From Lophium mytilinum (lineage: Eukaryota), in contig MU004189.1 in assembly GCA_010093605.1 (NCBI GenBank), forward strand, positions 1,185,834 through 1,249,833: a stretch of DNA of 64,000 nt, given 5' to 3'. Under the pieces are notes generated by a model. That model did not search any database. It was not told the DNA's origin and was given only the letters and a program-made list of their open reading frames with translations. Below are positions 6,930 through 51,823 of this stretch, piece after piece. The translations under genes and the position numbers were made by a program. Each line of letters begins with the position of its first letter. Within the stretch, counting starts at the first letter, position 1.

Positions 6930-7071
6930 ATGGAGGGCACTACCGCTTCGTCTTCGTCCGATCGTCTACTAAAAACATGCAAGTATTGGCCTGGGTATAA
7001 AGCTCCAGATCCAGATCCAGCTCCACCGGCTACCACCGAAGAGTCGTGGGACTGGTCCGTACCACCGTTAA
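6930..7071 (+). pseudogene. 5' fragment of paralog C (46 codons plus the TTAA target), separated from its 3' part by the giant insertion
   Basis: ATG at 6930 gives MEGTTASSSSDRLLKTCKYWPGYKAPDPDPAPPATTEESWDWSVPP-L. The WDW word also occurs in the N-terminus of paralog A (SGWDWY). TTA is in the same codon phase at 7068 and 50612. Confidence 0.85.
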
Positions 7072-7078
7072 GGTTTTC
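7068..7078. repeat. Left junction: TTAA direct repeat plus 7-bp terminal inverted repeat GGTTTTC
   Basis: CCACCG TTAA(7068-7071) GGTTTTC(7072-7078). Composition switches to AT-rich just inside. Confidence 0.85.
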
Positions 7079-8981
7079 ATTCACTTAATACAACGTTTTG
7101 CAGTCATTAAACTAGAAGTGGCGTTTAGGATTCACTAGAGAAATAGCAACTATAGTGCTCTTTTAGTATAGTATATTAATAGAAGCAGCACGTAATTTAG
7201 ATAGTAATATGCCGACGGAGCATATAAAAAGTAATGCGGAGGAGCTATATATATAGACGCGTTATAAAGTTACTATATAAGATAAAGTTTATAAGCCTAA
7301 AGAAAAACTATATTTAAGCTATAATTCCCTAAATCTTAAACCTAATCTATAATTCTTCTAACTCTAATTACCCCTCTTACCTTTATACTAATTACCCCCC
7401 TTAGCTTTACCCTAATTAACTCCCTTAGCTTTACCCTTACGGGCCGCGGTGCTCTTCTTAGATTTAATTAGAACTCCCCCTTTACTAATAGGTTAGAAGT
7501 TACGCCCGCTAAAGGGTAAACTTTTATATATAGTTTTAAGATTAGTAGCTATATACTACCCTAATACCTTATAGCCCGGAAGATAGAATTATTTAAGTAC
7601 TTTAGTAATCTAGAATAATTTATTATTATACGCGCGGTAAATAGGGGGAATCTATATAGGTCGCCCTTCTATATTATTATTCTCTAAATCTATTAGGCTA
7701 TAATCTTTAACTTCTCTATCTCTATTTATTATTAAACTCTTTAGACCGCGAGTAGTTTTCTTTCTATTATTATTATTGCTAATATTATTAGTCTTTTAAG
7801 GTTATTTTAACGTAATACCTATATTTATTATATTAGCATGCAAGAAATATAGCTAAGATAAAAGTAAGTATACCTAATTTTAGTAGTATACTACCTCTAG
7901 TCTCTTTATCTATACTTCTATTACGCGTTAAATCTTTCTTAGTAGTTTCTAACTCTACTAGACTAGACGTTATCTAGTTCTCTTTAGCTATATTAGTTAT
8001 CTTATCCTTTAGACTATAAGTTAGTTACTTTCTATTATTCTTTCTAATAGGCTTATAAGGTTATTTTACTATAGCGTCTAATTCTACTTAACTAGAGGCT
8101 ATCTAGTTCTCTTTAGCTATTCTTATATAATTTAAGTGGGGGACCTTTATAAGTGCTAATAGTAAGAGTTAAAGAATAAGGTTAATCTAAGAAGGCTACT
8201 AGCTAGAAATAGGGCTTTTAGACCGGCCTAGAAATATTTATAGATATTTAAGTAGATAGTAGAGTAAGCCTACTAATATTCTTTTAATTCTATAAAAGTA
8301 AAAGTAAGTTATAAAGAGCCCTATGAATATATAGATTATATAAGATATATAAAAGGTAAGCGCTTTAGTAGATTTCTAATAGAGTTTTCTAGTTCTAAAG
8401 AAACTTTAGTACTACTAGGTTCTAGACACCTTATATAGAGCTTGCGGCTTAGACTTTTATTACTACTAGTATTATAATAGACTAGTTTAGGCGTAAATAT
8501 AATTATATAGACCTCTATAGCTAGAAGTACTTTAGTAATTATAGGCGTCTAGCCTTAGAGTATTATAAGCGTCTATAGTACTAATACTTAATTTATAGAT
8601 AGAGTAAGTAATAGTAGGTCTTTATTTAGCTAAAAACTATAGATAATCTTAACTTATAGCTTAGTAATATACTTATTAACTAGTTAATCTATTATTCTAG
8701 GTAATATAATATTAGAGTATAATTTATTCTATATAGTATATAAGTTCTATTATAGGCGTAGTATAGCTACTATATAAATATCCGCTAGTAAAATAAAAAA
8801 AGGTATTGTAACTTATTTTATTATAGTGTCTCTTAAATCTAGCTTAGTAACCTTATAGGCTCTTTATACTATCTATCTAATATTAGCTTAAAACTAGGAT
8901 ATAGGCGGCCCTAGGCAGTATAGTATTATCTACCTATAGTGCCTTATATATATACTAAGTAGAACTTACTTCTATAAAGGC

Positions 8982-9234
8982 ACGCAGGTAATAGAAAAAG
9001 CTAGATACTAAAACTACTTACTATTTTTATAGCGTAATTATAGTAAATTATTAGGAGAAAGCTATACTTTAAAAGTAGATAAAAGTAATCTTAAGAAGTA
9101 GCTCTTTCTAATAGTATAAATTTTAAGCTTCTAGATAAGTAAGTAGTAGCTAAATATTAATATACTTTAAAGTATTTTTTGCTTATATAAGTAATTTTAA
9201 TAGTTTAGTATCTAGCTTTTTCTATTACCCGCGT
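8982..9234. mobile_element. Small MITE-like element with ~33-bp TIRs
   Basis: ACGCAGGTAATAGAAAAAGCTAGATACTAAA(A)CTA at 8982 is the near-perfect reverse complement of TAGTTTAGTATCTAGCTTTTTCTATTACCCGCGT at 9201-9234. Confidence 0.7.
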
Positions 9235-9235
9235 A

Positions 9236-9508
9236 AAAGGGTGCCGCTTAGAGCATAATTATAACCCTACTAGCTACGCAAGGTAAGGAATATTAAAATA
9301 ACTCTAAATCGGCAGCTTCTTAGAGCTATATCTTAAGATAAAAAAGAGGTTTTAAGTTATAAAAAGTTTAGAGATACTTATAGGGACGTAATTACTCTAG
9401 TACCCTACCTTAAAGTTATTATTTTATTATTATAGTTACTATAGACCTATATCTTAGTTTTTAGTAAAATACTTATATAATATAATTATGCTCTAAGCGG
9501 CACCCTTT
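9236..9508. mobile_element. Second MITE-like element with perfect 28-bp TIRs, abutting the first
   Basis: AAAGGGTGCCGCTTAGAGCATAATTATA (9236-9263) and TATAATTATGCTCTAAGCGGCACCCTTT (9481-9508) are exact reverse complements. Confidence 0.8.
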
Positions 9509-10349
9509 ATAAGGTTTTTAGCGCTCTTAAGCGGCTAGAGAGAGTAGAAGTTTAGGTAAGTACTTATATACCTAAGTAAAAGTTATAGGCTATCTATAAT
9601 TAGTTCTTTATACGCTCTATATTATATAACCCCTTATTTAGGCTACTTATCTATCTTAAATAGTTTATAGGCAGGAAGCTCTTTAATTATAAGTATTATC
9701 TTTCCCTTTTTTTTATATTCTACTTCTATAGAGTATAGTAGACTATATTCTAGAAGTTAACCCTTTCTACTCCGTATGCATTAAATAGAGATAATAATCT
9801 AGTAAGAGAGAATATATTATATATACTCCGCTGTCCCCTAAGTATATTATACTAAATATAGCTTATTATAATGCTTCCCTTCTATATAGGAGACCTAGAT
9901 AACTATATAATAATCTAAAGCTAGTAATCTTTCTAGAAGGGGTATAAATTATATAAAAACCCCTTAGTAGTTAAAGGGGTAATAATCTAATTAAACCCTT
10001 TATAGATATTTCTATTACACCCTCTATAGAGATTTCTATAGCACCTACTATATAGTCTAGTATAGTACTTATAGAAATTTCTATAACTACTACTAAGAAG
10101 ATTTCTATAATATCTTCTACTAATTCCCTTATATTTATGCTACCTACTAAATTTTCCACTAGTACTTAAAGTTATATTAAACGGTTTTAGAGCACCTTTA
10201 AAAAGCTAGAACTACTACTTTAGGTATTATACTTCTTCTATATTACTATTAACTAGAACTAATAAGATCTAGACCTATATTAAGTTATATAGTTAATACT
10301 TTATTAGCCTATAGATCTATAGTAGGGCATCTAAGCTAACCTTTTTAGC

Positions 10350-12760
10350 TATTCTTTTAAGCTAGATTTCTTAGAAGAAGCTAGTATATTAATTAAAGCG
10401 TCTATATAAAATATACTATAAGCGCTTAAAAAAAAAGTAAGGCTTTAGTATTTACTAGAAGAGCTCTTATCTAGTACCTATCTCTAATATAGTATACTAA
10501 TTAAATTAGAAAGATTATTAAATGCTATAGCTATTACCTCTACTAAGGTTATTAAATAGTATTATAAGGCAATTAATAGTATAGAGTAAGTATAACTATT
10601 AGTCTAGTAAGCTACTACTAATAAAGAAGTTAGGCTCTATTAGAGATAAGCTAAGGCGGCTAGTAGCTTAGAACTACTCTATCTAGCGCTAGAAATCTCT
10701 AAATACCTACCCTAGGCTCTATAGAATTATCTTAGTAAAAGTTTTAACTTTAGTACCTCTAAGAAAACTCTTACTAACTATAACTAGATAAATATAAGGC
10801 TAGAAGCTCTCTATAGTATTAATACTACTCTATACTAAAGTTAGATACTTATCTAAGAGAAAGTTAATAACTATAGCTATATTAGTATTAAGATTTCTTA
10901 GTAAAGTAGGTAATTAACTATTTAGAGGGAAATATTTACTAAATTAGGTAGCGTATATAAATACTCTAGCTTTTCTACATTTAAGAAAAATATATATAAA
11001 AAGCTATTACTTTTTTAGAAGTAATCTAAAAGGGGTACCTAGCGCACTATTACGCCTAGGCTCCTACTTTAGCACCCCTAACCTCCTCTAGCCGGCCTGT
11101 ATAATATTATAGTACTATATACTCTAGTAATAGTAAGACGCTACTCTTAGTATACTATTTTAAGTATTATTTTTTAGCGTATTAGATTAATACTAGTAAC
11201 TTAAATTATATAGTGCTAGTAGTAGGGCTTATACTATCTTAAATTATCTTAAAGAAGTAGCTAAGGCACCTAAAATAATAATAAACGCCTATAGTATAAG
11301 ACCTAGAATCTATATACTTAGAAGCCTATCTATTCTACTATACTACCTAGGTATATATATTAGTTCTAAGCGGCTGCTATATTATAGATAGTAATATACT
11401 TAGTTATAGCTAAAATAACCGGGTTGCCTAGAGAGACAGGTAGCGGGTTAACTAAATAATACTTCTATTAGTAATTATTATAAGAGGAGTATTCTAATAT
11501 ATAATTTAGACTTTAGGTACACCGCTTTAGTTCTAGAGATAGAGGTGCTAATTATTACGTTGCTAGAATCTAAGAGCGGGTTTAAGAAAAGAGATAAAAG
11601 ATATTAGCCTAATTAGCGCGGGCCTATTAGACGGCCGATAAAGCCGTTAGATAGTAAAGTATAGTAGAGTAATTCTATAAGATTTAGTAGCTAGAGAATT
11701 AACTAAAATAATAGACTCTAGCTACTAACTATATAGTATACGTGTGTAGTTTATAGATACTAGTATATTATAGAACTAGTTATTATAACTAAAAATATAT
11801 TAAGTACTATATATTAAGTATAGGGTTTTATATAAGTAAACTAGGTATACTTACCTCTTACTTATATACTAGCTTCTATTAGCTTACGTAAATATACATG
11901 CCTACTTTATAATAATCCCTTAGGCTATAATTATAACGCTTCTTTATATCCGCCGGCCTTAGTTTAGTTGGATTAATACTATATAGAGTAATTTTTCTTA
12001 AGTAGAGGGGTAGACTATAGCTCTATAAGGTCTAGTGTATATAAGAATCTTTCTAGAATATTATAGAAGTAGCCTAAGCTACTAAACTACCTCTATACTA
12101 TAAAGGAAGATTCTAATTTCCTACTAATTTAGACTAGAATTACTTATATACCTTTATTTCTAGTCTATATACTTACTATTATAGTACTTAATATCTTATA
12201 TAGAAAGTAATTAAAATTATACTACGCTAGTACTATTAAGATTTCTAGACTATATAACTAATAGTCTATACTATTAGTATTATAGTTCTTATCTTTACTA
12301 TTACCTACTTAGACACTATATTAGAACTTATTATTACTACTACTTATAATCTTCCGCAACTATATAGAGAAGTAGCTAGGCCTATAGTATTCTAGCTTTA
12401 GATATTTTTAAGTTAAGTATTTACTATATTTAGTCTTTCTATACTAAGAGTAGCATAAATATATTAGTATTATCTTCTTTTTAGAATATATAGATTTATA
12501 GACAGGTTACTAGAAAAAGACACCTACTTAGAGAATAGTAACTAATTTATTAGTATAGATATAATATATCTAGAAACTAATTATATTAATATTTTATCTA
12601 ATTAAGAGTCTCTATATAGTCTAATAAGCTCTAATTAACCGGCGCCCGGTATATATACTAAATCCGCAAGCTAAGATACTAGTATAAAGATTTAGCGTTG
12701 CATAGAAATTAAGGCTAACGGTTTACATTATAAAAATAAGAAAAGAGTATAAGTAGAAAA
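10350..12760 (+). pseudogene. RIP-degraded long cargo ORF, unidentified
   Basis: One plus-strand frame stays protein-like over ~2.4 kb when TAA/TAG are read as Gln/Trp/Arg. No motif recognised, and limits are approximate. Confidence 0.35.
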
Positions 12761-12859
12761 GTATAGACTATAGGTATACTACCCTATATATTAACTTAAA
12801 TAGTATCTTATTAGTATAGTGTTAGTATTCTTATATAAATAGTCTTAGCGCTTAGCTAT

Positions 12860-14900
12860 ATATAATCTCTAACTCTTCTAAATAGTAAAAGGTCGCGTAG
12901 GCCTTAGTAATATAGTCCCTATTAGCTTATTTTATAGTTCTATCTAAGTCTATTTACACCCCTAGGTTAACGTATTCTATCTTTAAATATCTTACTAGTA
13001 TTAGAAAGCGTTAGCCCTATCTTTCTCTAGAATGCATAATTAAGGTAAATATACACTAAGTATACTATAGTAAGAGGTATTTAGAAAGGGCCTAATAAGT
13101 AACTCTTTAGGATATCTTCTATCTATTAACTATCTATTAGCTAATAGCGCTCTATATAAAATAAATAGAATCTTACCCTACTATTATAAAAGTTATCTTT
13201 CTTAAGTTCTATCTAATTATATTTCTTAAGAATTTCCGTAAGTAAATATGCGTCTTTATTTATCTAGACTAAAGCCTAGCACTTCCCTTTATTCTTATTT
13301 AGGCCCTTAGTTCCGGCTATATCTACTAGATATATTTGCTTACCTAAGAGTATTAGCTAATAGATTAGATCCGCTCGGGATAATTACTTATTAATAATAG
13401 TAGGCTAAGTATATCTATTCTCTAATAGACTAGCAATTAGTATATTAAGACTAGCCTAGCTAGTTATAAGATATTAACTACACTTTAAGTATCCGGGTAT
13501 AAGGTCTTTAACATTTCTCCTTTAATCTATTTCTAGCAGTTCTTTAATATTACTAGACTTAGTACTATTACTAATAGTAAAGAGTATATAACCTTTTCTA
13601 TTTACCCTTATAGTACTAAATATAACTTAAGTATTAGCGTCTAAGAATATGCTCTTAGCGACTTTTCGCATAATAGAGTTAGGCTAGGAGAATATTATAT
13701 GCAACTTTCCGGCACTACTATAGCTATCTAAAATAATATAAATATTCTTAAGTTTAGAGTAAGAACTAAAGTTATTAATAAGCCTTTAAAGTCCGCGCTA
13801 TATATTAATATTTATATTCTCTATATTAAAGATATAGTTAAACTTATATAACCTTACTTTGCTAGTACCGTTTAAATTATTAAGGTTAAGCTTTTGTCTT
13901 CTGTTATTAACTATAAGAGGAAATAATAGCTAGTTGTCTAACATCTTTAATATCTAAAGCTAAACCTAAGCTCTAAGCTATAATATCTAGAGAAATAGTA
14001 CCTTATTTTAATAAATATTAAGTATAGGTATTTTACTATCTATATTCTCTCCTCTTTAAAGTTGTCTTACTATTTACCGCTCTTAATAAATTTTTAAAAT
14101 ATACTCTCTAGGGAGTTTATTTACCTTCTCTTTAAGGCGTCTATACTCTTTACTAATTATAAGGTTTTACTTTACTATATTTAACTATCGGCGTTTAAGA
14201 TAGCTATAGTACTCCTTATTAAATTTCTTTTTAGTATTAGTAGAATTTTTATACTATGCACACATTTTTATTAAAAGATTACATACCTTATTTCTTTCTT
14301 TAAGGGCTCTAATTATCTCTACCTTAGTTTTAAGCGTATTACGTTCTTTAATTACTTTATAAAGATTTTACTTAAGTATCTTTATTCTAGATTTAGATAT
14401 CTCTACTTAAGTTTAAAGGCTATCTTAGTCTATAAATATATTATAAAAAGTTTATTTAAGTTATAATACTTAAATCTTAAGAAGCTCCCGGTTTTTACTT
14501 ACTTCTTTAATTATAAGCTTATTATAATACTTAGATATCTTATAAAGCTATTACTTAAGTATCTCTACTTAGATTTAAAGGCCCTCTTAGTCTATAGATA
14601 TTTTATAAAGCTATTACTTAAGTATTTCTACTCGGGTTTAAAGGCTATCTCGATCTATAGATATCTTATAAATAATTTACTTAAGTTGCGGCACTTAGTT
14701 TTTAAGAACCTTCTAGTCTTTAGTTACATTTTAAAGGGTATAAATAAGTATATCTATTTTAATTATAAGCTTATTACAATGCTTAGATACCTTATAAAGC
14801 TTTTACTTAAGTGCCTAGATAATTACTATATAAAGACTAGAATAGTAGACACGTTTAAGAAAATTAAAAAAAGAAGTATATACTCTATATATTCTATTTA
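12860..14900 (-). pseudogene. Kinesin-like gene K1: N-terminal coiled coil and C-terminal motor (kinesin-14-like architecture), RIP-inactivated; may extend 5' to ~16100
   Basis: The minus frame reads YKFNYIF (F.FD.VF), NIYIILDSYSSAGKLHIIF at 13690-13746 (de-RIP DGYSGAGKSHTMF, P-loop), PTIINK*LSRAD near 13375-13400 (T..N..SSR, switch I), LVDIAGTK at 13306-13329 (DLAGSE, switch II), then INKD. Motif order is as in kinesins. Confidence 0.85.
14340..14820 (-). repeat. 63-bp (21-aa, three-heptad) coding tandem repeats forming the K1 stalk
   Basis: The unit GATATCTTATAAAGCTATTACTTAAGTATCTCTACT...CTATA repeats with period 63 near 14533-14660, with degenerate copies on both sides. The minus frame gives IDRDSL*TRVEILK**LYKIS (de-RIP ~DRDSLQTRVE.LEQQLHE.S). 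Confidence 0.8.
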
Positions 14901-16799
14901 AAAAGCTAGTAAACTTAAAGTTAGTATACTATTCTACTAAGTTGTGTAAGTAGATAGTAAAAGTCTATTTTAGCTAACTAAAGATAGCTAGCTAAGAATT
15001 TATAGTAAGAAGGAGGTTATCTACCTAGTTTTTATAGAGAGGATTATAGGTACTCCTAGAAAGAAATTAATAATACTAAAAAGTATATAAAACCTAGTCT
15101 TAAAGATTTTATAGTACTTAATATACTCTAGTATAAAGAAGCTAAAGAAGTTAATAAAGAGTAGAACGGAAATAATAGTAGCTACTATAAATACTAAGCT
15201 AATTAAAATAATAACCTATAGATATAGATATAAGGCAATAGCTATTAGAAATAATATAGCGGCACTAAATAACCTAGCTAGACTAGGGCGTAAATAAGCT
15301 TTATATAGAGCGCGAATAAGAGTATATTATAAGAGAGGTAAAGATAGTATTAATAGTTAGATAAAGAACTCTTAGCAGTAATTTAGCGCTAATTATTAGG
15401 CGAGGGGCTACGGTAGTAATCTTATATTAATAGTACTATATAAGCGTTCTAAGGGCAATCTTATATTAATATTTAGATAACGGCGTATTCTTAAAAATTT
15501 ATAGAGTAGTATTTAACTATAGATAAAAATACGTATTTATAATAATAGCTATAGAGATACTAGTATCTAGCCTACTAGAGTATCTAAGTAGTTTCTAGAT
15601 AGAGAGAGTATATAATTTACTATATAACTCTTTCTAGCTAAATAACTTAAGCTTAAGAATAAAGACTACTTATAGTTTTAAGTAACTTCTATATTTTCTA
15701 GAATATTTTATAGAATATTAGCTACGCTAAGATAGTTTAATAGTTTAATTATATTAAAGGTAGAGATATATACTAAGGTATCTAATTTGCGTCTAGCTAA
15801 GTAGATATAGAATTCTTTAACTTTATTAAAGGAATTCTATAATAGATAAACTTAGATTTCTTAATCTAAAACCCTCTATCGCCGTAATTACTTACTTTAC
15901 CTAGCGGAGACGGCAGGCCCGCTGTGCTTTAAAGTGGCTAACATTAATAGCTCTAGCTTAGTAGGCGGGTGTTCTATTACTATAGCTCTACTTCTTTAAA
16001 TTCCTTAGCTAATTAGTATAGCTTATCTACTCTTAAAACTTCCTTAGCTAATAATACCCTCTACTATACCTTCTACTACCCCTAAATTTCTAATAAATTA
16101 AAGAGGCCTTATATATAGTAAGAATATAGGTAAGATTAAAGCTTTAGATAAAGCTCCGGGCCGTTCTAGCTAATTAGAAGATTAGACGGGAGGGTAGTAT
16201 ATAAATACTAGCGTCTAATTTAATATTAATTTAATTTATTTAATTAAATTAGGGCGCTCCTAATTAAGTATTTAGTTTAATCTATTTTAAGAGGCCTAAC
16301 TAATTAATTAGTTAGATCCGAGCCTAGAAAGTATTAACTATTTAGATACTAAAATAAAGCGTAGTATATAATAGCTAAATTTTAGATAAACTCTAAGTTA
16401 AGAGTCTCTTAACTTAACTTAGTAAAGAAATCCACTTATTAGTAAGTATAAAGGCAGCGATACTTTCTTAAAGTAATCTATAGAGGGAAGTTAGTATAGC
16501 TTCTTATATATAGCTTTAAACTACTATTTAGCTTAACTATAGTAAGCTAATATATTACTATATTTCTAGGTAATTAATTAAGTATACTAAGTCTAGTATC
16601 TAAATAAATATAAAGAAGACTATAGTTCTATATCGGCGTGCTTCTAAAAAAGCGTTAAAAACTATAATTTTAAGTATATATTAGCAACCTAAAAAGAGGT
16701 TATTACTCTATATTTTATAAATATTTATTCTAAAAAGATACACGTACTTACTAAATCTACCTTACTATTACTATTCTAACTTCTTTCTTCTAGAACGCT

Positions 16800-19335
16800 A
16801 GCTACTATAAAAGCTTACTACTTTATGCTATATATCTATTAAGCGCCGTCTACTTAACTAACTATAGCTGCTAAGAACGCATTTAGTTTATTACTACTTA
16901 TAGCGGTAACCTCTACTAGATTATTTATAGACTGCAATATATATATAATACAGTTAAACTTCTAACCTATATAATAGATCTACTTAATTCCCTAGAGGTA
17001 TATACTATATAAAAACTGCGGCTTAAGTATTATTATTTATTAAGCTTAATAAAGAGTATATCTAACGCCTAGAATACTAATAGTACTAATTAGAATTATT
17101 AGTATAAAGCTTTCCTTATATTTAATATTTCTAGAGGGATTACATACTATAGCACTATTAGCGAGGTAATATTATTCCTTCTAGAATCTACTAACTATAG
17201 CCTTTCTCTCTACGCTATTTAGCTAAGATCTAAATAATTAAATCTTCTATTATAGACACGTAATTCTTAGCTACTTATAAAGTAACAGCGCTGCTACTAG
17301 TAGAGATATTAAGATAATAAGCTATTAGATATAATCTTTAAGCTTATCTAGCACTTCTATAGAGAGGGTAGCAGCCTTTTAACTCTATTACTTAGTAGTA
17401 GATATAGTATTCTCTTTATCTATCTCTTTTATAATGCCTAATATCTTATTAGTTTTTAGGCTTAATAATATAATCTAGCTAGTAAATCTCTAAAAAGGGA
17501 AATTAGAGTCTAGTAGATACTAGCGTTTCTCTTAAATTACCTCTATAGTAAGACTATACTCTAAAAGACTATCTTATACTAGTTATCTAAGGGCTAGAAA
17601 GGTAAAGACTAGGCGCTATTAGTAGGCTAGGCTCGCAAATTTTCCCTAAGAATAGCTTAGTAGGTCCCCTTTTTTACCTTACTACTTTTATTACCTTAAA
17701 CTTTCTAAATAATCTATTTATACCTGCGCTATTATATAGCTAATATCTACTTAAACTTTCTAGAGATCTCTTAAGTCTAAATAGCAGTTTTAAATCTACT
17801 TATTTAGCTAAGAAAGCAGTATTAGGGGCTTCTATTTAGGTTTACTACTTATCTAGAAATTTAATGTATCTATAGTCTAATAAATTATAAGATAGCTAAG
17901 GACTTTAGCCTATTACTCTACTTAGACACTAACCTAATTCTTAAAGACCTAGTAAGCTTATTTTAATTCTAAGCTATTTCTATATTATATAAGAATCTAG
18001 TTAAATATTACCTAAATTTTATATAGAATATTACTTTTATATATATTCTATACTCTCTTTATCTTCTTAGGCACTAACCCTCTTTATGCCTTAAGATTCT
18101 ATTACTTTTTAAGAAATTTAAGAAACTTAACTATATTACAGGAACTCTAATTCTAAGGTGTTTCTAATAATACCTATATAATAGGCTGTATAGATAGGTT
18201 AATATAGGCTTCTCTTAGTATATACTAGAAGAGATTTAATATAGATAACTTCTCTTTATAGGCTTTATTAATTCTAATAATCCTAAACTAAATATAGATA
18301 CCCGCGATATCTTAAAGCTTATATATTCTAGATAGTAGCTTTCTTTAATATAACTTATCTAGGATATAATATTTTAATAAGAGAGGAGTTATTATAATAA
18401 TATTTCTTAACTGCCCCGGCTTTAGACTGTATATTCTAATATAGATACTAGATTACCCGTTAACCCTAGAATTATGTATACATAGTTAGAACCGGCTCTT
18501 CTTAATACTATTAATTAAACTGCTTATATTATAATAACTAATATAGAGATTTATACTACTAGGCCCGGCCTACTAATTATTAAAGATGTTGTTAAACTCT
18601 CTAATCTAATTACTCCTTAGTAACGGCGGAATAATAATTAGTAAATTCCCGAGTATTAGCTAAATCTTTATAGAAATGCTGTGCCGCTCGCATATACATT
18701 ATAAGGGATATTAAGTAGTATTACTGCTTAGGTATTAAAGGTGTAGGTCGGCACCTTTATAGAGATACTTTTTATTATTTATTAGGCTATTAGCTTATAG
18801 ACTTCTAGGTATAGACCGGGACCTTTTAACTTTAGTATAATATTCTTCTAACACTGTAACTACCTAGTATATAACTAGTATCTCTATTATCTTTCTAAGC
18901 CTCTATTTATCTCTATTAAATCCGCCTTATATAGTACTATACTAAAGTAACATCTATATAACTATAAGTACTTAGTAGGTATATAGCTATTATTTTAGCC
19001 CTATTATTAAAGACTTCTTAATACTCTTATCTAGAGGTAGCTTAAATAGCGCGTAAGCTTTTACTAAGAGGTCCTCTATTATATACTTAGTTATACTAGC
19101 TTATATAGTCTTCTCTTAGATTACCTTACTTATATTAACTTTCTTAGCCTCTATATATTTAATTTCCAGCTTACTATATTATATATCTATAGTTAGAATC
19201 TTTTACAGTCTAATATCCTTATATTAATTACTATATTAGTATAATACTAGGCTTTATTTACATTATAATAGTAAAGTTTATAGATCTAAGATTTAAGTAT
19301 ACTAGAAAGTATATTATAGTACTAAACTTAAAGTA
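16800..19335 (-). pseudogene. SNF2-family (SF2) helicase/ATPase, RIP-inactivated; the 5' part probably continues past the N-gap
   Basis: Minus strand, in order: LYTY*V..V.*ML (Q motif); GGFNRDK*RLRKI at 18888-18926 (GG...DE.GLGKT, motif I); LLIIIPPLLRSN*IREF (motif Ia); IIRINKAY ending at 18258 (DEAH); ILISTISILGVRYTL (motif V); LKPQF......*GIK*IYYIG* near 16960-17025 (Q..R.HR.GQ, motif VI). Confidence 0.85.
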
Positions 19336-19345
19336 NNNNNNNNNN
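19336..19345. other. Assembly gap (10 N); the true element length is therefore uncertain
   Basis: Run of N. Confidence 1.
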
Positions 19346-37500: not shown

Positions 37501-37559
37501 GTGTGCTAGACTTATAACTTAAGAAGGTAAACTTATAGAGTAAGAAGTTAAACCTAGTA

Positions 37560-38640
37560 TATATAATTAGTAGAAGTTTCTAAGTAGTACTAACTATAAG
37601 GGGAAGTTCTCTTCTTACTATTTATACGCGGTAAAGTACTATTATATAATACTCTATCTAGTAATATAGGCTATAGCAACCTTCTATAAATTTCTAACTA
37701 CTTAGTTCTTACTATTAATCTTATACTAGATAAATACCTAGCGCTAGCTATAGATAATAAGTTTAAAGTCTATAAGCCGCGGCTATAGACTAATAAAGTT
37801 AAAGGTAATTAGAATATAATAAATAGATAACGCATTATAAATTACTTAGAATATTTCTATAATACCTATATACCCGGTAAAGTATTTAGAAGACTCTATA
37901 GGCTTTAGGTTTTAGTTTATTTATATAGTAAGCGGCTACTAGCCTAGAAATCTAATAGACGTCTATAGATTAATATAGTTCTTATTAGCTATAATATATT
38001 CTTAGATTTAATATAGCGCCTCTAGAAGTAGGCTAAGTAGTATTTAATATAGCGTATTATTAGAGTTTAGAAGGCTATATACTAAGGCGTCTAGAAAAAC
38101 CTTTCTAGAAGAGTTTATAGTAACTAGGCAATTTTCCGCCGCCTTACTATTTATAACTAGCTTTAGCGTATTTAGTATTAAGTTAATATAGTATAGATTA
38201 GTAACGCATATACTAATATAAAATACAGTCTTACTATACTATATAAGCCTAGTAATATATATCTATATACTAGATATATAACCTATTAAGCTTTTTACCT
38301 TAAATAGACTTAGTAGCCTACCTTCTAGATTTTTATATAGATTCTCTTTAAGAATCTAGAATTAGTCTATAAAGCTTAAGCCTAGTTTAGAATTAGTAGT
38401 ATAGTCTAGAGCGCTATTAATAGCACTAAATTTAGTAGCGTAAATAATATAAGAGTTATTAAAAGTATAAAAGAAGACGTCTCCCTTATATTGCGCCCTA
38501 TAATTCTATATAATCTATAGCTCTAGAGCTAATAGTAGTATATAGAAAGCTATTATAGTAGTAGGCGTATTAGATATATAGGGTAGAGAGTTATATATCT
38601 AGACCGGGCGCTTATAAGCTATAAATTCTAAAGTAGTTAT
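37560..38640 (-). pseudogene. RIP-degraded cargo ORF, unidentified; possible PD-(D/E)xK-like D..QxK segment
   Basis: A single minus frame with relatively few stops over more than 1 kb. Reads PRLIDFKLII...VFI*YK at 37720-37782. Confidence 0.4.
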
Positions 38641-41600: not shown

Positions 41601-43619
41601 AGACGCTATATTAAAAGGCTAGGTATAGAGGGGAAAGATATAAGTAGTAGCTTCTTAGTATTAAAGTAATCTTTAAGTATAGTATTAATATCTTTTAAAT
41701 AGAAAGCCTTACTAGAGGTATTTATATATACTACTCTAGAGCTAGCTTTAGTTATACTACTTATTAGTAAAAGTAGTATTAAAACTAGCTTAAGCTTTAA
41801 AGCTAGCTAGGTTCTAATATAGAAGAATTAGGCCTAGTATAGTAATAGATTAGTATATATAGAGCCCTAAGCCTACTATCTATTTATTAATTAATTAATT
41901 AAATATACCTTTTAATAAGTAGCTTCTAGATAATTATTATATCTATATATAAATGCTCTATATTTTACTTAAATAAATTCCTACTCCTACCTAATACTCT
42001 AAGGAGTAGTCTAGCTATACTATCTTACGGCCATAAAGAGTAAAACTAGTTACTAGCTAAGATTACTACTTTAATAGCCTAATATTTCTAGTAGTACTAT
42101 ACGCGTAGTAATATAATAGTATAATACCTAGTCTCTATAGCTAATAGAAATTATTGCTATATTAACTATTAGTTAGTTTATAATATAAGAGAGTAGATAT
42201 AGTATAGTATCCTTCCTATAATTCTATTCTTATAACCCTTACACCTATATTAGCTAATGCTCGGCACGCTCTAGATCTTTAATATAACTATTTTTATTAC
42301 GTTTAACTTTATAACCTTCTAGAATCTCTATAGTCTATTAGTAATACTACTAGCTAATAGATTATAAAGATTAACTTTAATATACTTTTTAGTTACCGCT
42401 ACTTCTCTTTTAGGTTCTCTCGCAGCAATAATATCTAGCTACGCGAGGCTAATAATATAAGTTTGCAGTAATTTATACTCTTTTTTAATATAAAAACCCG
42501 AGAAATAAATATTAAAAATATATCTTCTTATAAAATAATTATCTCTACGCAATTTAAAGAGCACACCCTTAACTATAGAGACTTTATTTCTCTCCCACTA
42601 TTAAGTATTATATAATTTAGTAACCTTAGCCGTTTTAGCTTCTAGGTTTATATAGGCGCGTAGAGAGGAGACTATTTATTTAATAAATAATTTAAGCTTT
42701 ATACTAGCTTAATTAGAATTAGTAATTCTAATATAAAGCTATTAGAGAAAAAGTAATAAGGTAGTAATATAAGCCGGCTAAGCAATATTCCTCTATAGAA
42801 GTAATAGAAGTTAGCTATCTAGAGCTTAAGAGAAGAAAAGAAAGGCTAGTATTAGTAGGCTGCTTACTAGGTAAGAAGAATAGTAAACTATAGCTATAGT
42901 TAACTATAGTAAGTATATTATAGATAGAATAGAATTATAGGTATTAGTTACCTATAGGCTAGCGGGGTAGTACTAGATTTAGCGAGATAGAATATAGATA
43001 TGCGTAAAATAGTATTTAAGAAATATTACTAATTTTACTAATTATTAGTAATTAGTAACTAAATCTATTAATTATTTTAATATTTATAGATATTTAATTA
43101 GACTACTTACTTAATAGAGGTTATATAAGCCCCTAATAGCTATAAGTTTTAACGTGTTTAGTTATTCTAGATAGGCTACTAACGCGTTAGCAGCTGTAGT
43201 AGTAGGCGCCGCGGCTGTGCAACTAGCTAGTAGGGCCTCGGCTAAACTTTTTATCCTTTCTATTTTATTAGCCTTACTATATTATATATACTTTCTATTT
43301 TAGAAAGAATAGATTAAGGCCTATATAGTAAAATAGAAAGTAAATTAGATCTATTATTATCTATAGAATAATTCTCTTCGCCCTAAGCCTATACGTGCAA
43401 CGTGCATTATTTAGTATATTAAGGGCCCTTTATTCTATTCTTATACTAGATATATATCTTTCTATTAATATAAAATTTAATAATATTAATATTAATATTG
43501 CGTGCGGGATTAATTAAGTATAGGGTAAGGATAACAGCGTTAGTAATAGAAGGGCTAGGGCGTTAAGTACTAAGTATTATAGTAATACTATATTAAGGGC
43601 AATCCTTAGCTATATTAGC

Positions 43620-43727
43620 AGCGATAAGGTTAATAGTAATAAGGTTAATAGTAATAAGGTTAATAGTAATAAGGTTAACGGCAATAAGGTTAATAGTAAT
43701 AAGATTAACAGTAATAAGGTTAATAGT
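43620..43727. repeat. 15-bp tandem repeat, about 7 copies
   Basis: (A/G)G(T/C)(A/G)ATAAGGTTAA(T/C) repeated. The least-mutated bases give GGC GAT AAG GTT AAC. Confidence 0.9.
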
Positions 43728-44199
43728 TAAGAGTGTTAAAATTTATAGTAGGTAATATCTTAGCTATCTAGATGCATAGTAAAATAGAAGGAATAAGGTA
43801 TAAAATAGAAGAGCTATATAATAAAATAGAGAGTATATAGAGTTTATAGTAGAACTATATAGGCAAGTATAGATATAGACTTAGATTTAATTAGATCTAG
43901 TAGACTAATTAGAAGCTAAGAATTATAGACTCTAAGCCTTATAAGTATTAAAATACTAACCTTAATACTAAAACTATATATTACTAAAAACTATTAGAGC
44001 TTCTAGAGTGCCTATAGCCTTTAATCTAAGCAGCCTAAATAGAAACTTAACCTAGGTCTAATACTTTTTTAGGTACCTCTATCTAGCTCTAGCCTAAATT
44101 ACTCTAGTCTAATAACATTACTAGAAAATAGTAGAAAAGGTAATTATTTTATCTATATAGGGCCGGCCACCCGCTAAAAAGAAGAGATTCTACCTAGTA

Positions 44200-45780
44200 T
44201 TCGCCCGTGCCTATTTTACTTATATACTAAGATAGTTCTACTTACCTACTAGGCTACTATAGCTTTCTATTATCTAACTAGTCTATATTCTAGCACCTAT
44301 ATAGCTTACTTATAATAGAAGAGTTATCTTCTTTTAGCTTCTACTACTATAACTTATCTATCTACTGCAAGTTATCTTTATTATCTAAAATCTCTATTCT
44401 TTTATTATCTATACGCTCTAGATTAAACCCTCTTTACTATTATCTTTATTATTAGTATCTGCGTCTCTTATCTATATATCTTTATTATAATCCGTATCTT
44501 TATAGCTTACTAACTAGCTTAATTCCTATCTCTAGTAGCCTACCTACCTATATAGAGTCTTTTAGCTATAGATAACTTAGCTATAGATTTTTTAGTTATA
44601 GATTTATTATCTACTAAAGGTTTTAGATTAGATATAGCTTTATAGGTTTTATTATTATCTTTCTTTTACTTCTTTCTATCGCTAGCATTAGCGGCGTTAT
44701 TATTATTATTCTTAGAATTTAGGACTATAAATCTAGCACGTTCTAGCGTTATTTAACTAATAAGCTTAGCAGGAGCTATTATTCTATTCTTTACCTTTAT
44801 AACCTCTCTTACGGGTATAGAAGTTAGGCTAGATATAATCTAGGCGTTATTATTATTATTATTATTATACTTTTACTTTTACCCGCAGTCTTTAATTAGA
44901 TCTAGTCCTTATATAGAAGCTATAGCTAGTATACTTATAGCTAGTTTACTACTTAGCGGCTTATATGCAGCGTTGTTAATATTACTACTATAATCTTTTT
45001 TCTTCTCTTTAGTATCTAGCCTTATAGGCATTACTCTCTTATAATCTAGATAAGAATTAATATATTTAAGAGCTTATACTTTATTAGTCCTCTTTCTATT
45101 CTTAGGTACTAACTTAATAGCTATCTTTTTTAACTCTTTTAATAACTAGTTACTATATATAAGAGTATTACTCTTATAATATTAGTATTATATAGATCTT
45201 TTACCGCTATAATACTTGCTAATAAGGTCGCATTTATTATATAGCTTTAGCTTCGCCTAAACCCTCTTAGTTTTCTTAAATGCCTTTTAGAACTAGCGTA
45301 TAATATACTATATTAGGGGTATTCTACTTAGGTAAAGCATTTTATATAGGTTAATAAAGGCTTTAGTTAACTTTTTAGTAGTTTCCTTCTAATTATTATT
45401 AGTATAATTACTTTTAAGATAGTTCCCTGCTAAATTTACGCTTTCTAGTAGTAAAAGCCTTTAGGCACTATTACTACATAATTCTAGGCTTAGATAAGGA
45501 TAAGCTTTAAGTATATTGCAATATTAAGGTATTAGATAATTAAGAAGAAGATAGAATATCTTTTCTAGTTATTATCTTGCCGGCTTATATTTTAGCGTAT
45601 AATAGGCTTAATAGAGAACTATAAGTACTACCTTATTACTCTAGTTCTAGCTGCCTTAGAGGCTACTTATAAATAAGTATTAAAGAAGCGTGCTTCTATT
45701 CTAGCACTTTATCTCTATTTTTATCTACTTCTTCTTTACTATATAGAGTAGAAGTATATAACTTATACTACTATATATAA
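44200..45780 (-). pseudogene. Cargo gene with a probable internal Zn(II)2Cys6 cluster, RIP-inactivated
   Basis: Minus 45241-45155: TAT aat aaa TGC x6 TAT x7 TAC x2 TAT x6 TAT. This gives C-x2-C-x6-C-x7-C-x2-C-x6-C if TAT/TAC derive from TGT/TGC. Only one Cys codon is intact. Confidence 0.55.
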
Positions 45781-46899
45781 TTTACTTACTCTACTAGAAC
45801 TAGTCTATTAGTAAAGTTAGTAATAAGAGAGGTAAGATATATAGATTTATAACTTATACTCTAGGTATAAATTCTTTAGTAATATTTTAATAACGTAGTT
45901 ATTATAGTATATTACTATTATAATATTCTATAGAAGTGTATTATTTAGATATATAAATACTACTATCTAACTTCTTAATATTATATAGATTTAGAGAATT
46001 TACTTAATTATACTAAAATTAAATCTTTTAGCGTCTTACATATTATAAATTTCTAGTATTTTTTCTCTAAGTAATATTATTATATAACTATCTTTCTTCT
46101 TTACCTTACTATCTCCCTCTTAATGCGCTTTATCTAGTTATTACAGACTACTATAGTCTAAGCTAGCGGTAGAAGGGCTAATATAGTAGTCTTTATTATA
46201 GGGCGGTAGAGTAGAATTACAACCTATAATAAGATTAGCGGTCGGGTTTAGTAGCTAGTAGTATAGAAGGTAATAACTAGAAGAAAAAATAGATTAGAGA
46301 AGGTAATAAGTTAATTTATATACTTTAAGGTACTATTAAACTCTATAGCCTAAATATTTATCTAGAAGTTATAAGAATCTTCTTAAACTACTTTACTCTA
46401 GTAAGGTAGTAGGGCGGCTCTATATAATTCCCTATATATAATATTATATTATTTATTACCTAAAGTAGTTTAGTATATAAATCTAAGGTATTAAGGTTTA
46501 ACCTTACTATATAGATATTACTATAGACATAGCCTAGGCCCTAAAGCTAGGCCTAGCCCTTAGTATTATTATTCTTATTATAGACGTTCTATAGAGGGCC
46601 TTAAAAATAGTTATATTATTAGCCTCTACTCTATCTTATACCTTCTATACTAATTCTATAGTATACTAGGTATTCTTTATAGCCTATAAAGCCGCTACGC
46701 GTATAGCTACTATATTAGTAAACAACCTATATAATACTAAGGTCCGGGGCGGCTACGCTATATACTATACTATTAATATTAAAATTTAAGTCTAAATAGC
46801 ATTAAAAACAGCTTAAAAAAAGAAGAAATAGGTAAGAAAGGCTTTAAGAGGAATCCGTTAAGATAACTATTAAGGTAGTATATAGCTAATAGAATTTAG

Positions 46900-49800
46900 A
46901 CTATTTCTTTTAGAAGAGCCTATTATATAATACCTTAAGTTTTAAACTATATACTATATAAATTAGAAATCTAGTATAGGCTATACTAAGCCTTTATACT
47001 ATAGAAAAAGGCTATAATATAGATACCCTATTAGAGCTCTATAGCCTTAGCTCTAGAATTTTAGAGGTCCCCGCTATAGTCTTCTAAAGCTACTAATTAG
47101 GGGCGCTTCTAGAGCGGAATATAAAGTAGTAGAATTAGGTATCTATTAGCTATACTATAGGCGTTACCTTAACTAAGCCTTATATTAGTATTTCTAATAT
47201 ACCGGCTTCTAGCTTTCTATATATATACGCCTATTATATATTATACGCTAGAGCCTATAATCTATAGTAGTATCCTCCCCTATATTAATATAATAGCTCT
47301 AGGCCTCTAGCTCTATAACTCTCTCTTTTAATTTAATTACTATAAAATTAAGAGAAACTAGCTAAATAGAAATCTTTCTAAGACGACTAAGAAAAATCTA
47401 AAGAAAATAAAATATAGAAACATTAAGAAAATAAGAAAAAAAGTTATATATCTTTAGATATACACCTAATATTATCTATATACTTATCTACTATTACCTA
47501 AAGAATATTATAAATAGTTATATAGAACTTCTTTTCTATAATCTTCTCTATTTAGAATTTATTGCAAGATATAGCGCCGGAAATATCTTAGAGAGAGCTA
47601 TTAAGAAGAAATAAGTTACTAGTAGTAAGGTTAAGCTTTACGTTACGTTTTAAATATTCTTAGCCTCTAATACCTATCTTCTCTCCCTTATTACGTAGCA
47701 CTATATTAAGGTATTTTTATATATTAATAGAGTCTATTTAATACCGGTCTTTATTATCTATAAGTCTCTTTTTAACTATATTATTATTATTAAGGAAGGT
47801 TAATAGGAAAAGCATTAGATTTATTAGCGGTTTCTCTAGTATTATCTTATCTAGGGAGTAGACTATAAAGAATACTTAGTTCTATTTAGAGCCCTTTTTA
47901 TTAAATAGTAAGGGTAATAATAAAAGGTTTATTATATACTAAAGAGCGGGGATATAAAATTATAGTATAATATAAGTTATATCTAGCCACCTTACTAGAG
48001 ATATAAGTAATAGCGGATATTCCTCCTTAATATAGGGGATAATAATAGCTTTACCCTATAGGTAGCTTCTATTTAAGAAAATATAAGTAAGAATTTTAGA
48101 GTAACTATTAATATACTTGTAAAAGCTTATAGTAAATAGTTCTTATCTATTCTACTCTACTTATTTAATAGAACATTCCCTAAAATCCCCGGATAGAGCT
48201 TTAGTAGGTAATAGAAGGCTAGTAGCTATCTTTTAAAGAAGTAGCTATCTAGCCTTATTACTAAGATCTATAATTCTTTATAATAAAAGGCTCGCACCTT
48301 AGAGATTAAGGTTAAAGGGGCTTCTATAAATATTTATCCCGTCTAGCAGGAAAATAAGTAGGCCTTGTCCCTCTTAATAATAGAAAAGAAAATTAAAGAA
48401 GAATAGCTAGTTAAACTAGAATAACCTTATCTTAACTATTATATAACCGTACTTATATTATATAACATACTAGTTCTTTCTAATCTTTAGAATAAAGTCG
48501 CCTGTAAGTAGCTATATTAGAGAATAAAGCACCCTATATTTAGCCTTAGAAAGCTATTAAATTATTTCTAGTATAACTATATAGAAGCTATTATAATTAC
48601 TATATTTAGCTTAAATTATTCTTAAGATTTCTTACCGCGGTATACTATTTAGGGTTTTCTACTACTAGTTAATTTTTATATAACTTATTAGATTCTTAAC
48701 CTTAGTACTATATATATAATATCTTAGTATTATTCTAATATTACTCTAGTATACTGCGTATAGCGCTAGGGGTACTATAATCTTCTAGATTAGATATAAT
48801 CCTCTACGCCTAAGAGAGTTTTAATAAAGAGCGGCTAATAGTAGGATTTTATTCCTTAGAATAAAGAAAATAAAGTCTAGTACCCTTAGTAAATAGTAGA
48901 TAAATACTATTACTATACTTATTATAACCCAATTATATATAGGAAATCCTATCTTAATATTAATACTAATGCCTATTATACTTAGCTAGGATTTAGCCCA
49001 TCTAATCCTTACTATATTATTAAGAGATATTCTTTTTAAGGCTAGGTTATTTATAGAGATAATTACTATATTATATTCTATAAAGTTAAGAGCTAGAATA
49101 GTTAATAGAAGTAGTCTAGACGCTAGTTTATAGAAAGATATACCTAGCAATATATAGATATTCTACCTAGTAATATCTATTATATAGCCTCTATAGCTGC
49201 TATTATTACTTAACTCTATAATCCCTAGTATTTTATTATTATGTTTACTTATAGGGTTGCGTTTATATTTATTAGCCTTAATCTTAGTATTAGAGTTATT
49301 CTTATTAGCCTTACTCTTATCTACTATATACTTAATATCCCTAGTATATATAGCTTTCTAAGTAAGCCTATAAATAAGTTTCTTAACTATATTAAGATCT
49401 TTTAGGTCTCTTAAATAATCTATTCCCTTCTTTAAGCTTAATATTTAAATTAGCTTATAGTTATAGAATAGCTGCTTAGCTAATTCTCTTAGAAGAACGC
49501 GTAGTAGCGTATTTAAGATATAGAGTATTAGTTACTAGTCTTAATAATAGTGCTATAATTATATATACTATAGAGATCTTATAGAGTTTACTTTATCTTC
49601 TCTCTATTTTTTAGAAGCGACTAGAACGTCTCTTATAGCGGGCCTCTCTTAATCCCCTATACCTGCCCTAGAATATATTAAAGAAGATAATATACGTAGC
49701 TTATTATAGAGCCTAGATCGCTTAAATTAAATATCTAAGTAATCTTATAGTTAGATTTAAGTATTCTATTAGTAGAGATTCTATAGAGCTTTTTAGCTAT

Positions 49801-50070
49801 CTTAAGAACTTTATTCTCTAACTATATCTCTAGAATATAGAGAATAGTTACTATAATTAGTCTAGTAATACTTTTAATCTCCTTCCGGCCTTTATATATA
49901 GGGTCTAACTCCCCCTCTTTTAGCTTATTATCTTATAATTTCTTATCTTCTAACCCTTTATCTTCTAGTCTATTATCTTCTACTATCTCTTCTTTTATTT
50001 TCTAAGCTTTATATATTTCTTAGGGTTTAGTAAGGGGTTTAGTAAGGGGTTTAGTAAGGGATAAGCTATA
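46900..50070 (-). pseudogene. Tyrosine recombinase ('captain', DUF3435-like), RIP-inactivated, intron-containing
   Basis: Minus strand, in order: acidic N-terminus; LV*LAILL*FSF...GTRP at 48419-48360 (cf. captain RVQL...LQ....G.RP, catalytic R); LFTISFYK; EEYPLLLISLVRWL (cf. E..PL..CPV..L); NLMLFL; LRNKGEKIG; LSLRYFRR ending at 47574 ((H/Y)xxR); L*Y(H)S at ~47513-47502; Tyr at 47480 and 47471. It is the first gene, about 0.5 kb from the terminus. Confidence 0.75.
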
Positions 50071-50604
50071 ATATAGTTAATAAATTATATATTCTTCTAG
50101 AGTATTACTAATTAAGTTTATAACCCTTAGATTTAATAGGTACTTCTAGAATAATCTATAAGCTATATTAAAACGTATGCTAGCTAGCTAGAAAAGATAC
50201 TCTAGTAGGTAGAGACTAAAAGTAATAGCTAATATTATATTAAAGGTTATAAAATAAATATATTAATAGATAAATAACGGCCCGGATTACTATAGGGAAT
50301 TCTAATAGTACTAGTAGGCCCTTCTATATAAGATATAAGGTATTTAGTAGATAATAGCGGAGGTATATATAGTAGTTATAAGAAGTATAAAGTTTACTTA
50401 GAATATATAACCCTCTAAATACTATTAGCTATTATTAGTATTTAGGTATAAATATCTAACTATAAGTTATAATATTATTAGTTACAATATTATTTAGCGG
50501 GCAATTTAAAACATGTACCTTGTATTATATACTTCTATTAAACTTTATATACCCCGCACATCTATTAGACTTTATACTGTATACCCGCGCACTGTTATAT
50601 GTAA

Positions 50605-50615
50605 GAAAACCTTAA
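50605..50615. repeat. Right junction: 7-bp TIR GAAAACC plus TTAA direct repeat
   Basis: GTAA GAAAACC(50605-50611) TTAA(50612-50615) CACCTG. Composition returns to normal GC immediately after. Confidence 0.85.
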
Positions 50616-51823
50616 CACCTGCCCACGCGGAAACAAACAACAACACTCCTCTCGAAGCAGATGTAGAGACGGCCGAGCCAATCCAGACCACAAATGCTGG
50701 CTACCTTGACATTGCACAGACGGAGGTACCTCGTCTGTTCAACTCAAATGCCGACATCATCGCTTACCAGAGGGCCGAATCCAAACGAACCGCTTACGCT
50801 ACGAGAATCGAGCATAATGGCTACAAGCTCAACTGGGCTCTCTACAATTGCCGCGCAGCTCTAGCTCTAGTGACCTCTATCTTGGATCTGATCAGAAACC
50901 ACCACCTCCATAAAGATCTCTTGCTGAGGGAAGTATTTTATGGTCTAGATTCAGAGAGCGTTAAGGGCCAAACCATGACTCCTGAACAGCGAGTTGAGGG
51001 TCGAACGATCACTCCTGAGCAGCGAGTCGCTTTTGATGCTCTTGTCCAGCGCTTCACTGCCCTCTCCGAGCTTATGCCTCTCTCGGAATACATAGAAGTC
51101 TTACTTCACTACGGGAGTGAGATCTGGCCAGTTGTTCACAACCTTGGCAGGGGGGGTAAGTACAACATCTACTACCAGCGGTGTTTGAACGCCCACAATT
51201 ACTTGGTTGGAAGCAAACATCCAGATCACTTTGTGAGCTGGATCTTTAAGAAGATGCGAATATTCCCCAGACTAGAGGTCGAGCTTTGTAGCATGATTGC
51301 GGTATTGGAGGATTTCATTCCAGACGTAGAGGCTCTGTGGGGGTTTGATGTGACGGAAGCCGACCAAGATACGCGAGTCGGTTGGGTAAAAGAAGGCTGG
51401 TCTTCGGCGGATTCTTCGCTGTTGAGACCTCGAAATCGCCCACCCGCTCCTACGCCACCTCCGTCAGAGGAATGGAGGCCGGAAAGCCCCATAGGTGGTT
51501 GGGATGGTTCAAGGCACGAAGAAATCGAGGCCCATCGTAAGATGCTAAGGGAACTCGACGATTACCCCGACAGTGACGACGAATCCCAGTACGGCGACTA
51601 TGACGAGGACCCTGAGGCTACCCTTTGGACGGCCCAATGCGAAGCCCGTCAAGAGATCAATGAAGTACTACAAGTCGGAAGGGGCACTAAATTGTTTACG
51701 ACTGTGATGCAAGCTTCTTGGGTCCGCCAAAATATTGCCAAACTGCGCACGTTCCTCAATGAGTGGCACCATGAGCATCCGGAGCTCCCAAAGGATCTCC
51801 GTGGGTACAGCAACGAGGTGTAA
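50612..51823 (+). CDS. 3' part (403 codons, still open) of tandem-family paralog C, putative HEPN/DUF86-like protein
   Basis: The first 33 codons of ORF 50513-51823 are element-derived AT-rich sequence. The remainder aligns with paralogs A and D. RCLNAH at 51179-51196; ends GYSNEV*. Confidence 0.85.
   Translation, partial: LTPAHAETNNNTPLEADVETAEPIQTTNAGYLDIAQTEVPRLFNSNADIIAYQRAESKRTAYATRIEHNGYKLNWALYNCRAALALVTSILDLIRNHHLHKDLLLREVFYGLDSESVKGQTMTPEQRVEGRTITPEQRVAFDALVQRFTALSELMPLSEYIEVLLHYGSEIWPVVHNLGRGGKYNIYYQRCLNAHNYLVGSKHPDHFVSWIFKKMRIFPRLEVELCSMIAVLEDFIPDVEALWGFDVTEADQDTRVGWVKEGWSSADSSLLRPRNRPPAPTPPPSEEWRPESPIGGWDGSRHEEIEAHRKMLRELDDYPDSDDESQYGDYDEDPEATLWTAQCEARQEINEVLQVGRGTKLFTTVMQASWVRQNIAKLRTFLNEWHHEHPELPKDLRGYSNEV

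Follow-up and report, generated by a model that had tools for sequence, protein, structure and literature searches.

The window analysed here, a stretch of 64,000 nucleotides of contig MU004189.1 of Lophium mytilinum, contains an AT-rich block (7072..50611; 43,540 bp as assembled) inside a gene, which raises the question whether this tract goes back to the insertion of one mobile element and, if so, of which kind. The block is one base-exact mobile-element insertion that split the gene and was then mutated throughout by repeat-induced point mutation (RIP). It is too degraded to show whether the element was a giant transposon of the Starship type, and membership in that family is not claimed, since its defining gene, a tyrosine recombinase, was sought and is not recognisable in the block.

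Ends of the insertion and the split host gene

Base-exact ends, a single short target duplication and a short terminal inverted repeat characterise the block. At the left junction the sequence is CCACCG-TTAA-GGTTTTC (7068-7078) and at the right junction GAAAACC-TTAA-CACCTG (50605-50615), exactly as stated in a preliminary description of this locus. The two copies of TTAA (7068..7071 and 50612..50615) enclose the terminal inverted repeat, i.e., GGTTTTC at the left end (7072..7078, + strand) and its counterpart at the right end (50605..50611, - strand; GAAAACC on the + strand). Target and repeat together form the 11-mer TTAAGGTTTTC (TTAA-GGTTTTC), which is present in the window in two exact copies, at 7068-7078 (+) and inverted at 50605-50615 (-); allowing up to one mismatch, 6 sites are found in the 64 kb against 2.3 expected. 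The chance of a 7-nt inverted repeat coinciding with a 4-nt direct repeat at fixed ends is ~8e-7.

The length of the target duplication is ambiguous, as TA, TTA/TAA and TTAA each predict the identical empty site; because the TTAA palindrome adjoins the repeat, it cannot be fixed from one copy. With a TTAA duplication the inverted repeat is 7 bp long, and with a TA duplication 8 bp (the repeat then being AGGTTTTC). The earlier proposal of TTAA as the target is therefore compatible with the junctions, but TA or TTA/TAA are equally so. RIP causes transitions only, and purine/pyrimidine recoding was used in the comparison of repeats because RIP cannot alter that code. On this basis, a longer terminal inverted repeat is unsupported (13 of 18 positions in agreement at positions 8-25 of the two termini, P 0.05; P 0.24-0.39 for longer purine/pyrimidine stretches; gapped alignments and controls at chance). 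A search of the block for further copies of the termini found none, yielding just AT-rich matches of 60-65 %.

The insertion separates an N-terminal fragment of 47 codons (6930..7071, + strand), extending from the ATG to the TTA of the left TTAA and corresponding to residues 1-37 of the orthologue, from the C-terminal 403 codons (50612..51823, + strand; orthologue residues 48-428), the frame of which is still open. In-script removal of 7072-50615 (43,544 nt) restores a 1350-nt open reading frame (ORF) of 449 amino acids with a single terminal stop and the junction WSVPPLTPAHA. The frame is lost if either zero or both copies of TTAA are kept (stops at amino acids 62 and 79). The rebuilt protein matches an uninterrupted protein of Mytilinidion resinicola from end to end in one alignment (1-449 versus 1-428, 41 % identity, E 5.5e-115). 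Each part also aligns separately: residues 1-41 of the N-terminal fragment align with residues 1-37 of the orthologue (E 5e-8), including the motif KTC[KR]YWPGY, and the C-terminal part with residues 48-428 (41 % identity, E 9e-107).

Deletion and end-to-end alignment thus bear out the in-frame split and the continuous 449-residue ORF of the preliminary description, which had also held that the empty site can be reconstructed; the rebuilt site is GTTAAC, frame-exact with one TTAA. An orthologue with an N-terminus unlike that encoded by 6930-7067 had been named there as the observation that would speak against the split; the orthologue's N-terminus matches, and the claim stands. The N-terminal WDW word, in contrast, which was said to match a neighbouring paralogue (paralog A), agrees in 4 of 7 residues (E 0.41) and is by itself no evidence.

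The host gene has so far been found only in Mytilinidiaceae: among 3,967 candidates, its sole other relative is the 428-residue M. resinicola protein with 41 % identity. The C-terminal part is identical (100 %) to part of the L. mytilinum model BU16DRAFT_539415. Pfam scans of the split gene, its paralogue and its orthologue revealed no family, and a search of the ESM Atlas with the C-terminal part gave no usable match.

The proposed course of events comprises a single insertion of a mobile element at GTTAAC, between codons 47 and 48 of the host gene. The element carried the ends GGTTTTC...GAAAACC, and its insertion duplicated TTAA or its TA/TTA core. RIP then drove the whole insert to ~28 % GC, halting at the element ends and leaving both gene halves intact. 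The last 99 nt of the element (50513..50611, + strand) provide an ATG with 33 in-frame open codons, which is also the start of a public gene model; an open run of at least 34 codons in the block has a P of 0.035. From this ATG the C-terminal 403 codons may, judging from the reading frame, still be expressed. The split gene has retained an open frame of 403 codons despite its interruption and may use a start codon that comes from the element.

The public gene model itself (580 amino acids, 50513-53143) starts at the ATG inside the element, crosses the inverted repeat together with TTAA and continues in the split gene. Splicing then adds parts of a partial paralogue located downstream (52209-52619, 52793-53143), and the model looks chimeric.

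Composition and contents of the block

The block displays a GC content of 0.24-0.32, TpA/ApT values of 1.55-1.96 and (CpA+TpG)/(ApC+GpT) values of 0.09-0.27, as compared to a GC content of ~0.5 and an index of 1.0-1.35 in the flanks. At either junction this composition changes inside one 50-nt bin, and to this resolution the RIP signature begins and ends at the junctions, as had been noted before. Towards the edges of the block, the outermost 50-100 nt show somewhat weaker RIP.

Assembly across the junctions was compared with Logan contigs from two DNA runs, probably of the sample from which the assembly was made; these represent a separate assembly of data that are not independent. Contigs of 15,619 and 19,515 nt cover 6000-18104 and 6000-18932, respectively, and cross the left junction (7071/7072) with 0 differences. 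At the right junction, all 204 sampled words of 49600-51600 are present in both runs. Besides these two, the search for runs returned one unrelated, presumably RNA run with none of the words, and no run of another isolate. The re-assembled contigs end at 18932-18940, beyond which there are only 30-nt pieces of other contigs around a run of 10 N (19336..19345; assembly gap or mask), and the assembly may be weak at 18940-21000. Since the N run lies inside the block, 43.5 kb may be a minimum length.

Protein families were searched by Pfam in six frames of 7072-50633 with X at stops (18 translations, E ≤ 0.1). None of these translations yielded a reverse transcriptase, integrase or transposase domain, and Rfam and tRNA scans of the block yielded 0 families and 0 tRNAs. 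A nuclear copy of mitochondrial DNA is ruled out by the lack of any Pfam, Rfam or tRNA match.

The block is almost free of internal repeats. The purine/pyrimidine repeat search returned 10 pairs above the shuffle maximum, and an ungapped scan of every diagonal revealed nothing beyond tandem arrays and a single pair each in inverted and direct orientation. Apart from the tandem arrays and one 157-nt pair, no direct-repeat pair of at least 150 nt at ≥77 % transition-blind identity is present, and neither gapped nor ungapped transition-blind scans of the block detected an intact pair of long terminal repeats (LTRs). An internal inverted repeat (23705..24497) has arms of ~150-190 nt and a core of ~95 % identity; it was scored as a 154-nt pair (23730-23881 / 24308-24461) and contains 22-nt tandem units with ATTACCCCCC. 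A direct repeat of 741 nt with codon periodicity is formed by 13403..14109 and 30276..30994 (both + strand; 77 % purine/pyrimidine identity, with gaps). A repeat of ~0.8 kb (21808..23782, + strand) occurs in two direct copies (21808-22588, 22962-23782) and a third, inverted copy at ~15900-16400, and a tandem array with a 63/126-nt period is located at 14391..14816.

Tandem units of 22-24 nt with ATTACCCCCC lie at 7364-7437 (~300 nt inside the left end), 23765-23819 and 24370-24424; they are thus present in both arms of the internal inverted repeat and absent near the right end.

Former coding regions were traced by purine/pyrimidine 3-periodicity, a RIP-blind measure that was scored against the 99 % shuffle level and marks the known flank genes; 33 of 284 windows of the block exceed the threshold. 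Stop-density maps point to several remnants of 450-900 nt. The best-preserved former reading frame comprises 830 codons (47201..49690, - strand; stop density, translation and 3-periodicity) with 56 stops, all of them TAA or TAG. It starts ~0.9-1 kb inside the right end, is directed inward and includes one stretch of 178 codons with just 2 stops, compared to 6.7 % stop codons overall. Assignment of strands from the purine phase was dropped, as a known minus-strand gene was mis-called. With respect to a possible cargo, the 43.5 kb fit the size of a Starship, and only short coding-like remnants were found, none of which matched a known gene.

How much homology survives RIP was gauged with three genes of the window (no Starship recombinase among them), which were mutated in silico with RIP-like context preferences to 26-28 % GC. 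They retained ~60 % amino-acid self-identity and contained 4-7 % stop codons, a range that includes the 6.7 % of the 830-codon former ORF. The split gene treated in this way still matched its 41 %-identical orthologue (E 1e-26 to 1e-40, scaled to a large library), whereas a 32 %-identical paralogue was no longer detected. The absence of protein homology in the block therefore points to additional decay, to broken reading frames or to content that belongs to no known family. It counts against typical members of both groups considered below, i.e., a giant element inserted in one step and transposons nested within each other.

Origin of the inserted DNA

We consider that a giant element of Starship-like architecture inserted here in a single step, of which the present block would be a derelict copy; the chances of this being correct are about even. 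The scarcity of internal repeats and the lack of a long LTR-like direct pair speak for a one-step arrival, as does the failure to find reverse transcriptase, integrase or transposase domains, and so does parsimony. The strongest former ORF is located ~1 kb from one end and directed inward. The inverted repeat is genuinely short, and typical Tc1/mariner or PIF ends are longer than that. In this respect, it fits the repeats of Starships in the part of starfish Table S7 searched, which lists inverted repeats of 10-22 nt. A further argument is provided by the sister genus Mytilinidion, as starfish Table S8 gives 18 Starship recombinases (and 0 elements) for M. resinicola.

Starships are giant elements of Pezizomycotina that carry cargo and are moved by a DUF3435 tyrosine recombinase, the "captain". 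The starfish paper defines them by a DUF3435 recombinase located as the first gene at the 5' end, by cargo and by direct repeats, sometimes also by short inverted repeats; repeats of 2-6 bp are noted, and RIP-mutated copies are called "derelict". The block is similar in being tens of kilobases long (43.5 kb), in its short flanking direct repeat (TTAA) with a very short, perfect inverted repeat of 7 nt just inside, in its position within a gene with a reconstructable empty site, and in being fully RIP-mutated. The placement of its best-preserved former ORF ~1 kb from one end compares with three Alternaria Starships of Table S7, the recombinase gene of which starts 962 bp from the 5' end. It differs in that captain and auxiliary gene families are not recognisable in the six-frame Pfam search, in belonging to a species with 0 captains in the starfish survey, and in that termini and repeat are unmatched by the elements listed in the part of Table S7 searched. 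Thus, of the Starship-like insertion with target TTAA proposed in the preliminary description, the single precise insertion, its ends and its empty site stand, while the Starship identity would rest on size and end architecture, the recombinase not having been found.

Several observations weigh against a one-step arrival. A single insertion at the outer ends is no proof that all 43.5 kb came together, and the uniform RIP implies a former duplication of each part, for which multi-copy transposons are the simpler explanation. Some internal insertion or duplication did take place, as several small repeat families in the block show. Codon periodicity is sparse in the block, with 21 of 260 windows above threshold when tandem arrays are left out, versus 41 of 125 in the flanks. 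None of the 18 read-through translations matched any Pfam family, DUF3435 included. The 830-codon former ORF likewise matched no Pfam family at E ≤ 10 and had 0 matches at E ≤ 0.001 in a phmmer search against 1.84 billion representative proteins. According to the RIP simulation, RIP alone should not hide reverse transcriptases, integrases, DDE transposases or DUF3435 proteins that have close relatives. In Table S8, L. mytilinum, surveyed with its only genome, is entered with 0 for recombinases and elements alike. For Zymoseptoria, nested blocks of 12-29 kb that kept the target duplication of the outer element have been tabulated.

A less probable, albeit serious, alternative is that an ordinary small transposon of the cut-and-paste type, bounded by terminal inverted repeats and with TA, TWA or TTAA as target, inserted into the gene and that all later transposons entered only this island, enlarging it to 43.5 kb, with RIP degrading the whole; the outer ends would then be those of the oldest element. 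A TA, TWA or TTAA duplication beside an inverted repeat is what marks DDE cut-and-paste transposons, RIP of the whole block is expected for multi-copy families, and the small internal repeat families, the internal inverted-repeat element, the sparse coding signal and the 0 Starship recombinases listed for this genome would all be accommodated. The process is well known, and the Zymoseptoria blocks are bounded by the duplication of the outer element. In the same genus, TA duplications were reported for 8 of 13 families of miniature inverted-repeat transposable elements. For L. mytilinum, two waves of LTR and DNA transposon expansion have been reported. What makes the nested origin doubtful is that neither an LTR pair nor a reverse transcriptase, integrase or transposase domain was found, though simulated RIP leaves homology detectable, and that the inverted repeat lacks a transition-blind extension. 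Moreover, six or more successive insertions would be needed, every one of them into the island, with the gene-dense flanks being spared.

Among the cut-and-paste transposons, piggyBac elements duplicate TTAA, carry inverted repeats of 12-19 bp starting with CCC and encode a DDE_Tnp_1_7 transposase. Tc1/mariner-pogo elements duplicate TA and possess inverted repeats of ~20 nt or more and a DDE_1/DDE_3 transposase, and PIF/Harbinger elements duplicate TWA and encode a DDE_Tnp_4 transposase. An inverted repeat without extension is unusual for the ends of Tc1/mariner, PIF and piggyBac elements. The block is like all three in that a TTAA, TA or TWA duplication abuts the terminal inverted repeat, but is 10-20 times larger and yielded no DDE transposase domain in the six-frame Pfam search. 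As a piggyBac element it was rejected, as TTAA fits but GGTTTTC has only 7 nt and no CCC start and a transposase domain is lacking. The same applies to Tc1/mariner-pogo, where TA fits but the 8-nt inverted repeat has no transition-blind extension and again no transposase domain was found. In case of PIF/Harbinger, TTA/TAA is compatible, with the ends then offset by one base, and no transposase domain was found.

The AT-rich, RIP-saturated blocks of Dothideomycetes, as known from nested elements in Zymoseptoria and isochores in Leptosphaeria, share with the present block the size of tens of kilobases, the sharp borders towards genes and the preserved target duplication of the outer element. They differ in consisting mainly of LTR retrotransposons from recognisable families with 5-bp duplications, while here no LTR pair and no reverse transcriptase were found and the terminal repeats are inverted rather than direct. 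A block of nested LTR retrotransposons was rejected, since the transition-blind scans revealed no LTR pair and the six-frame Pfam search neither a reverse transcriptase nor an integrase.

Within a one-step arrival of the giant element, the strict case of a true Starship is less likely than not, with odds similar to or slightly below those of the nested island. The element would then have been moved by its own DUF3435 tyrosine recombinase, the RIP-destroyed remnant of which would be the former ORF at the right end, with TTAA as the recombination core. Size, short direct and inverted repeats and the terminal inward-reading former ORF agree with this assignment, as do the derelict copies described in the starfish paper and the 18 recombinases of the sister genus. 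However, the defining recombinase was sought in Pfam and among 1.84 billion proteins and not found. In the part of Table S7 searched there is no plain TTAA repeat and no ggttttc end; two unrelated inverted repeats of Fusarium end with gaaaacc. A literature search for Starships with a TTAA target site found nothing relevant. The inverted repeat "attaagggtt" of an Alternaria Starship was rejected as a relative, since that element starts with AACC and its repeat is TAGGAT.

The remaining share of the one-step arrival, a giant element other than a Starship, is improbable taken by itself. Its specific form, rather improbable as well and to be regarded as speculation, would be a derelict copy from an undescribed class of giant, cargo-type elements in Dothideomycetes, independent of DUF3435, with a TTAA duplication and a 7-bp inverted repeat and mobilised by an orphan protein, the gene of which would comprise at least 830 codons and lie ~1 kb from the right end.

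Capture of the block at a double-strand break or by another rearrangement, with the 11-nt inverted match due to chance or microhomology, would agree with the lack of a recognisable enzyme gene but is very unlikely in view of the joint chance of inverted repeat and 4-nt duplication given above and of a frame and full collinearity with the orthologue that are restored only with exactly one TTAA.

If the giant element did arrive in one step, L. mytilinum would contain a Starship-sized element despite being scored without a Starship recombinase. RIP-active fungi would then hide dead giant elements that are missed by recombinase-first tools, and base-exact ends within a gene would offer a way to find them. 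If, on the other hand, the block grew by nested insertions, it would represent a commonplace AT-rich RIP block, albeit one the outer boundary of which is unusually clean.

Flanking genes and neighbouring features

The flanks harbour ordinary fungal genes, encoding a 5-oxoprolinase, a GRDP-like protein and paralogues of the split gene without Pfam family. The latter form a local cluster of an orphan family, located at 3179-4324, 6930-7071 together with 50612-51823, and 52793-53143; two of its members (P0002 and P0003) share 32 % identity over 200 amino acids (E 1e-18). The only relative of this family found outside the cluster is that of Mytilinidion. The interval that separates paralogue A from the split gene contains, at 4640-5664, a degenerate tandem array (period ~205-210 nt), the units of which share 63-65 % identity in raw and 84 % in purine/pyrimidine comparison. 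Downstream of the cluster, a region at 54868-55690 without Pfam family has a GC content of 64 % and displays overlapping long open frames on both strands (Pro/Ser/Ala-rich) together with very strong 3-periodicity.

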